This document shows, one piece after another, positions 17,921-19,069 of a stretch of DNA of 64,000 nt. The stretch lies in assembly GCA_000002445.1 (NCBI GenBank), contig CH464491.1, positions 224,001 through 288,000 of the forward strand. The letters run 5' to 3'. A program made the translations under genes and the position numbers. A model generated the notes under the pieces. The model saw only the letters and a program-made list of their open reading frames with translations, made no database searches and was not told where the DNA came from. Within the stretch, counting starts at the first letter, position 1, and every line of letters begins with the position of its first letter. Origin of the DNA: Trypanosoma brucei. Lineage: Eukaryota.

Positions 17921-19069
17921 ATGAGACGGGCTGTGGTACTCCGTACGGCAGCGCCGATGTGTGCACTCACCGGTAAGTGCGTTGAAGATTGGGAGTCTCA
18001 CAGGAAGTCGTTTGACATGCGTATTTTTGAGCTACTGAAGGGGCGCCTAACGTCACCTACCGAGCCGTTGCCCATCAAACAAATCTATGCAACAATTGCG
18101 AATCCGTGCCGACTTGTTGAAGAATTCACGTGCGCCAAAACCACGCGCCGGTTGGGCCGACTTCATACGGCACTTAGTTTCCTTCGGCGCCACAATGTGC
18201 TGCTTCACAGTCTCCTTTTTCACGTGAAGGAAACACAAACTTGGAACACGACACCAGACTTTGACCGGCTTGCCTTGTATGGAGAAAGTTCACTACGGCA
18301 CGAAGTGCGCGCTCGCACACTTCGCCTTTTCCCGGGCATTGATTCGGAGACTTATGCCGCATTAACGTCTTCTGTGTTGAGTGAGGAGGCGTTGCACGGA
18401 CTGTTTGATCGACTACTAATGAAAGCACTGGTGGGCGAGAAACCGGTGGGTAAGATGCGTGACTGGTCATTGACTCCGAATCAGTGCGGCCAGATGTTGT
18501 GTGCCATTGTTGGGGAGATGAGTTGGTTCGCCGCACGGACGAAAGCAACTGATCGTACGCATAATAATGCGCTCTTCCCTCCTTCAGACGCTCTTATTCT
18601 TCACGTGTTGTGCTGTCACGTATTGGAGAGTCTTCCGGCTGAGTTGTTGTACAATGTGCTGGAACCAAAGGTACAACGCATAAAGGAGAATTGGGTAAAT
18701 GAGCCAATGTCGATTCCTGAGCAGCTGCACTTGAAGCCCCGGACAATAGGTTCATTATCGCTCTCACTGGTAGCCAAGCCTTTGACTGAGGAAGAGGGCC
18801 GCAGGAAAGAGGTGGCAGTATCCGCCGAGAAGTGCCAGCTCAGTCTCACACCTGAGCGAGTAATTGGGAGTGTTCGTTCCACAATGCTGCCTCGGTGGAA
18901 CTACAAGCGTTTTGAGGAGCGGCGTTATCACATACTGGAGAGCGACAAGCGACAAGTTCTCCCACTCGCAATGTCCCCGGTGGGAAGAGGGGATGTGAGT
19001 CTCGCTTCGGAGCAGATGCCGGATGAGAGGCGGAGGGAATTAGTTGCGCTGGCACTGGGAGGGCGGTAA
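17921..19069 (+). CDS. KREPB5: Mitochondrial RNase III-like (degenerate) protein, about 382 aa (about 44 kDa). It is probably the editosome protein KREPB5/MP44. The first ATG is at 17921. The track start 17858 is GTG.
   Basis: The N-terminus [12 protein letters not shown]... looks like a presequence. The segment ...[52 protein letters not shown]... follows the RNase III signature spacing (ERLEFLGDA...LV...RFP...G.L...LVSNE.LA), but GES replaces GDS/GDA. Size and position relative to the neighbouring genes fit my recollection of KREPB5 in this T. brucei chr11 block. The name is tentative. Confidence 0.5.

Follow-up and report, generated by a model that had tools for sequence, protein, structure and literature searches.

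The window analysed here is a stretch of 64,000 nucleotides of the Trypanosoma brucei contig CH464491.1 (assembly GCA_000002445.1, positions 224,001 to 288,000, forward strand), in which an earlier note, made from the letters alone, had proposed a gene for KREPB5 (MP44), a subunit of the editosome. Both the listing of open reading frames (ORFs) and a direct reading of the sequence revealed an uninterrupted plus-strand frame running from the ATG at 17921 to the TAA at 19067-19069. Its product has 382 amino acids, a pI of 9.3 and a computed mass of 43.46 kDa, and the two protein strings quoted for it are present and contiguous in residues 113-168. The in-frame GTG found upstream, at 17858, is an artefact of the bacterial start rule used by the ORF tool, the first ATG being that at 17921. 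A chance ORF is excluded, since the product matches a database protein exactly and shares 99.5% identity with a protein of solved structure.

In fact, an exact-sequence look-up showed that the protein is identical to XP_828187.1/EAN79075.1 (Q387F6_TRYB2, 'RNA editing complex protein MP44' of T. b. brucei TREU927) and also to SCU69572.1, the KREPB5 of T. equiperdum OVI; at the DNA level, positions 7920-25944 of the window share 99.889% identity with the T. equiperdum contig CZPT02001254.1. The top phmmer match among PDB sequences was chain A of 9DEI / 9Z0H (E 6.1e-258), titled 'KREPB5; RNA-editing catalytic complex core protein, B5 / RNA editing complex protein MP44', which is identical in 380 of the 382 residues over the full length and differs only by R8H and L44V, while the second-ranked match was the paralog MP46/KREPB4 (E 1.3e-12). 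Furthermore, all those of the 41 homologs found that carry a source name come from kinetoplastids (Trypanosoma, Leishmania, Leptomonas, Phytomonas, Strigomonas, and Angomonas), several of them under the name MP44. The full-length identity places the protein in the KREPB5 orthologous group, and KREPB5, B5, TbMP44 and Tb927.11.940 are given as one and the same in the table of a 2026 review (PMC12936278). With the reference protein matched along its whole length and the frame intact, there is hardly any chance that the locus holds a different editosome paralog (KREPB4 or one of KREPB6-10) or a KREPB5 pseudogene. We conclude that it is almost certainly the nuclear KREPB5 gene (TbMP44, Tb927.11.940), whose product most likely acts as a pseudo-RNase III scaffold of the RNA-editing catalytic complexes (RECCs), as the earlier note had anticipated in naming KREPB5. 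The identity of the protein, its fold, the loss of catalytic residues and the pattern of conservation are established here. Publications already cover the gene with its domains and mutational landscape as well as the structure of the protein within RECC1, and the locus adds nothing new to them.

The C-terminus shows a length polymorphism (19064-19075). The frame ends here in ...GGR-TAA, followed by CGT TGA. KREPB5 has 384 amino acids in DAL972, where it ends in ...GGRYR, as well as in T. b. equiperdum RHW67593.1 and in the PDB forms. A single TAY/TAA change thus makes the TREU927 / T. equiperdum OVI allele two residues shorter, and the difference is a strain polymorphism.

The central domain of KREPB5 has an RNase III fold. 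The Pfam family Ribonuclease_3 (PF00636) is matched by 18 of 24 orthologs (best E 1.9e-5), and a profile built from the 24 orthologs matches Giardia Dicer (9.1e-6), KREN3/MP61 (3e-4), KREN1/MP90 (0.009), and E. coli RNase III (0.059). An AlphaFold2 model made from the ortholog alignment reached a mean confidence (pLDDT) of 75.4, the blocks over residues 11-260 being mostly above 80. In the comparison made with this model, 9dei_A (KREPB5) comes first with a score of 28.6, followed by KREPB4 (19.5), KREPB8 (16.4), KREN1 (16.3), the RNase III enzymes of Entamoeba (14.3), C. jejuni (11.4) and E. coli (11.2), human mL44 (11.0), and the RNase III of A. aeolicus (10.3). It could be argued that a degenerate RNase III fold belongs to a mitoribosomal protein of the mL44/mL57 type rather than to an editosome subunit, a case that the earlier note had named as its refutation. 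mL44 scores no better than a generic RNase III, the best match is not to mL44 (PF22935), and the near-identical match to KREPB5 rules this candidate out, leaving it a probability close to nil. Both mL44 and mL57 belong to another complex and stand no nearer to KREPB5 than generic RNase III does.

The RNase III signature of KREPB5, DRLALYGES, falls on RLEFLGDSIL of E. coli RNase III when aligned with hhalign, and a profile alignment to KREN1 places this motif and the second one on FERLEYIGDN and KADVVEAVIGEL, respectively. According to these alignments, A118, E122, Q191 and C194 occupy the positions of the KREN1 residues E, D, D and E, the first two being equivalent to E41 and D45 of E. coli, and the set of four metal-binding carboxylates (E41, D45, D114, and E117 in E. 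coli) is not retained: alanine replaces the catalytic Glu, glutamate the first Asp, glutamine the second Asp, and cysteine the second Glu. Both alignments agree with the reading of GES in place of GDS/GDA made in the earlier note; that note was right about the altered acidic residue and understated the degeneracy, as A118, Q191 and C194 have changed too. Position 118 is A, S or C across the 24 orthologs, and E122, the sole carboxylate kept at the four canonical positions, is E in 20 of them and K or Q in the other four; overall, the four positions are either non-acidic or variable among the orthologs. The conserved glycine of the signature, G121, is invariant (24/24), and so are E128, R132, E199, W202 and F203.

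With only one of its four metal-binding carboxylates left, the central domain is a pseudo-nuclease, in line with the catalytically compromised RNase III-fold protein described beforehand. An active RNase III would require assuming that E122 stands in for the Asp and that E128 or E199 completes the metal site. The retention of the E122 carboxylate in most orthologs and the invariance of E128 and E199 speak for it, but the remaining canonical positions are A118, Q191 and C194, and E122 itself is replaced in four orthologs. Moreover, the Glu of 'GE(L/M)' is also present in KREPB4, KREN1 and KREN3, so that it characterises the family and does not compensate for the losses. KREPB4 and KREPB5 are regarded as non-catalytic in the literature, and the equivalent KREPB4 substitution, E164A, still allowed function (PMC11033214, PMC5648035). 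We therefore consider a competent enzyme highly improbable and keep the pseudo-nuclease reading. The signature glycine, in turn, is needed for KREPB5 function according to the literature: its mutation is lethal, and KREPB5 carrying a substitution there works neither in bloodstream nor in procyclic forms (PMC6800513, PMC5648035).

Conservation is highest just after this domain, in residues 207-230, and the majority of the invariant columns of the 24-ortholog alignment are found in residues 207-236. In the AlphaFold2 model a helix spanning residues 221-256 carries C232, H233 and E236, and the sequence LCCHVLES found there, in which H233 and E236 are invariant, corresponds to the RAM element formerly called the 'PUF motif' (PMC9508840, PMC5648035). 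These are the residues mutated in the 'PUF-triple' allele, whose numbering agrees with ours (PMC5648035). Residues 257-382 were mostly modelled with low confidence, except for a conserved W258-N260-S264-Q268 patch and a terminal helix (368-379). The loop formed by residues 211-223 (18551-18589) is almost fully invariant in the 24 kinetoplastid orthologs, and yet the modelled core drops to low confidence only there (mean pLDDT of 52 for residues 211-220); probably this loop becomes ordered only when it touches another subunit or partner of the complex.

Table 1. Features of the KREPB5 locus, in window positions, with the residues they encode and the basis of each assignment
Feature	Residues	Positions	Strand	Basis or remark
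Polypyrimidine tract 17871-17886 (16 nt), then first AG 17895-17896		17871..17896	+	Direct sequence reading
Complete KREPB5 / MP44 coding sequence, 382 codons + TAA	1-382	17921..19069	+	Tb927.11.940-type allele; ORF, database identity
Basic, acid-free N-terminus, presumptive short mitochondrial presequence	1-13	17921..17959	+	Composition
Putative remnant of a U1-like zinc finger, C14...H27 and helix 31-43	14-43	17960..18049	+	Aligned to KREPB4 finger
RNase III-like (pseudo-nuclease) domain	74-207	18140..18541	+	
Degenerate signature motif DRLALYGES	115-123	18263..18289	+	Alignments to E. coli RNase III, KREN1, KREN3, Dicer
Second RNase III motif	191-203	18491..18529	+	Aligned to KREN1 'DVVEAVIGEL'
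Hyperconserved segment, then long RAM helix (formerly 'PUF motif'; C232, H233, E236)	207-256	18539..18688	+	
Poorly conserved C-terminal region	257-382	18689..19066	+	Ortholog alignment, model

At the other end of the protein, the composition is compatible with a short basic mitochondrial presequence, which we consider presumptive: the first 20 residues include four basic and no acidic ones, and most orthologs likewise begin with M-R/K-R. Residues 1-8 were modelled with a pLDDT below 50. The 9dei_A structure covers 374 of 384 residues, which leaves at most about 10 amino acids for an N-terminal piece that is removed or disordered. The mitochondrial localisation of KREPB5 itself is taken from the literature on the complex. 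The putative zinc finger remnant aligns with the C-x2-C...H...H finger of KREPB4, only C14 and H27 matching its ligands, and the region is missing from the Leishmaniinae orthologs. This remnant on the N-terminal side, the extended RAM helix and the sub-threshold Pfam score set KREPB5 apart from the class 1 enzymes (E. coli Rnc, A. aeolicus, and C. jejuni) and from Dicer/Drosha, as does the want of three of the four carboxylates and of a double-stranded RNA-binding domain. The paralog KREPB4 (TbMP46, Tb927.11.2990) is among its closest known counterparts.

KREPB5 has been described as a non-catalytic protein, belonging to the 12 subunits that all three RECC isoforms share, whose loss disrupts editosomes with stage-specific differences and of which more than one copy per complex is probable (PMC6800513, PMC5648035, PMC13036485). 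As it is essential for editosome integrity, it is therefore essential for the viability of the parasite. A chain 99.5% identical to the protein encoded here sits in the solved cryo-electron microscopy (cryo-EM) structure of RECC1, 9DEI (released 2026-01-21), and in 9Z0H, so that the incorporation of this KREPB5 into RECC is supported indirectly. The earlier note had implied a pairing with the active endonucleases KREN1-3, and needs correction here: the catalytic heterodimers assigned in the literature are N1/B8, N2/B7 and N3/B6. KREPB6, KREPB7 and KREPB8 are the non-catalytic partners of KREN3, KREN2 and KREN1, each confined to one RECC isoform as part of a half-active heterodimer, whereas KREPB5 belongs to the common core, is found in all three isoforms and is not an assigned endonuclease partner. 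In published models the partner of B5 is either B4 or a second B5 (PMC6800513).

Taking all this together, KREPB5 would be made in the cytosol, presumably imported into the mitochondrion by means of its short basic presequence, and would join RECC1-3 (the ∼20S editosomes) as a common subunit. The retained signature glycine would allow the dimerisation helices to pack, the long RAM helix being retained as well, and the RNase III-like surface would then most likely dimerise with another RNase III-like domain, either that of KREPB4 or that of a second KREPB5. This dimer, together with the RAM helix, would scaffold the RECC core that holds the catalytic KREN/KREPB6-8 heterodimers, and KREPB5 would be a textbook pseudoenzyme recruited as a scaffold.

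Several points weigh against this proposal; they touch the mechanism only, and no evidence counters the identification of the protein as KREPB5. The single sequence scores 13.8 bits against Ribonuclease_3 (E 0.1), under the 27-bit gathering threshold; the homology becomes evident with the orthologs and their profile. The set of zinc-finger ligands is incomplete, C14 being kept in 16/24 orthologs, H27 in 12/24, and C20 in 2/24. This partial loss fits the published observation that the finger is essential in KREPB4 and dispensable in KREPB5 (PMC5648035). Finally, both the cleavage of the presequence and the identity of the dimer partner are inferred.

We also considered that E128, E199 and E122, together with the loop 211-223, could form a half-site that contacts metal or RNA within a pseudo-dimer of KREPB4 and KREPB5, helping to position the duplex of guide RNA and mRNA. 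If this were true, KREPB5 would be more than an inert scaffold. We regard it as very unlikely; the idea comes from conservation only, and the published cryo-EM structures probably settle it already.

Polypyrimidine tracts followed by an AG are the usual layout of trypanosome spliced-leader acceptors. According to this, we infer that the AG upstream of KREPB5 is a putative acceptor, in which case the 5' untranslated region would be of ∼24 nt. As expected for a trypanosome, the gene lies within a long plus-strand polycistron of unrelated housekeeping genes. It is preceded, in this order, by genes for a TPR protein, an isocitrate dehydrogenase, a TIP120/CAND1-like protein, a hypothetical protein and a TSNAXIP1_N protein, and followed by those for an RRM protein, an AAA ATPase, Nup98-96, ATG9, DnaJ and a PfkB kinase and, further downstream, Brix, vasohibin, an ABC transporter and a calpain-like repeat protein. 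No tRNA genes or Rfam families were found in the window. Four other plus-strand ORFs of 442-647 amino acids (12981-14309, 39354-41297, 43168-44931, and 53178-54815) gave no Pfam match at the thresholds used and presumably encode kinetoplastid-specific hypothetical proteins.

The calpain-like ORF starts at the ATG at 55198 on the plus strand, runs past the window end at 64000 and contains Peptidase_C2, Calpain_III and DUF7623 domains. Between 60155 and 64000 a 204-bp unit (68 aa) is repeated in tandem at least 18.9 times with 96% identity (...LAKLKASDSRSFLDPMPEGVPLSELELDKDEKFSTMEEERRKLIAEDRE...), and we take the product of the ORF to resemble the ClpGM6 / GM6 flagellar repetitive antigen of T. 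brucei and FRA/H49 of T. cruzi. A minus-strand ORF of 1331 amino acids (59994-63989) was rejected as an antisense artefact of this 68-aa repeat array, since its product is of low complexity and rich in Ser and Leu and the coding frame is on the plus strand; the window is thus without a strand-switch region. Repeats are also present in the Nup98-96-type nucleoporin (25751-30412, plus strand), which has Nucleoporin2 autopeptidase and Nup96 domains and an N-terminal array of GFGQ-type repeats (25874-27369) with DNA periods of 84, 210 and 36 bp. A T. equiperdum contig (L001) stops within this array, and its end is probably an assembly break at the repeats.
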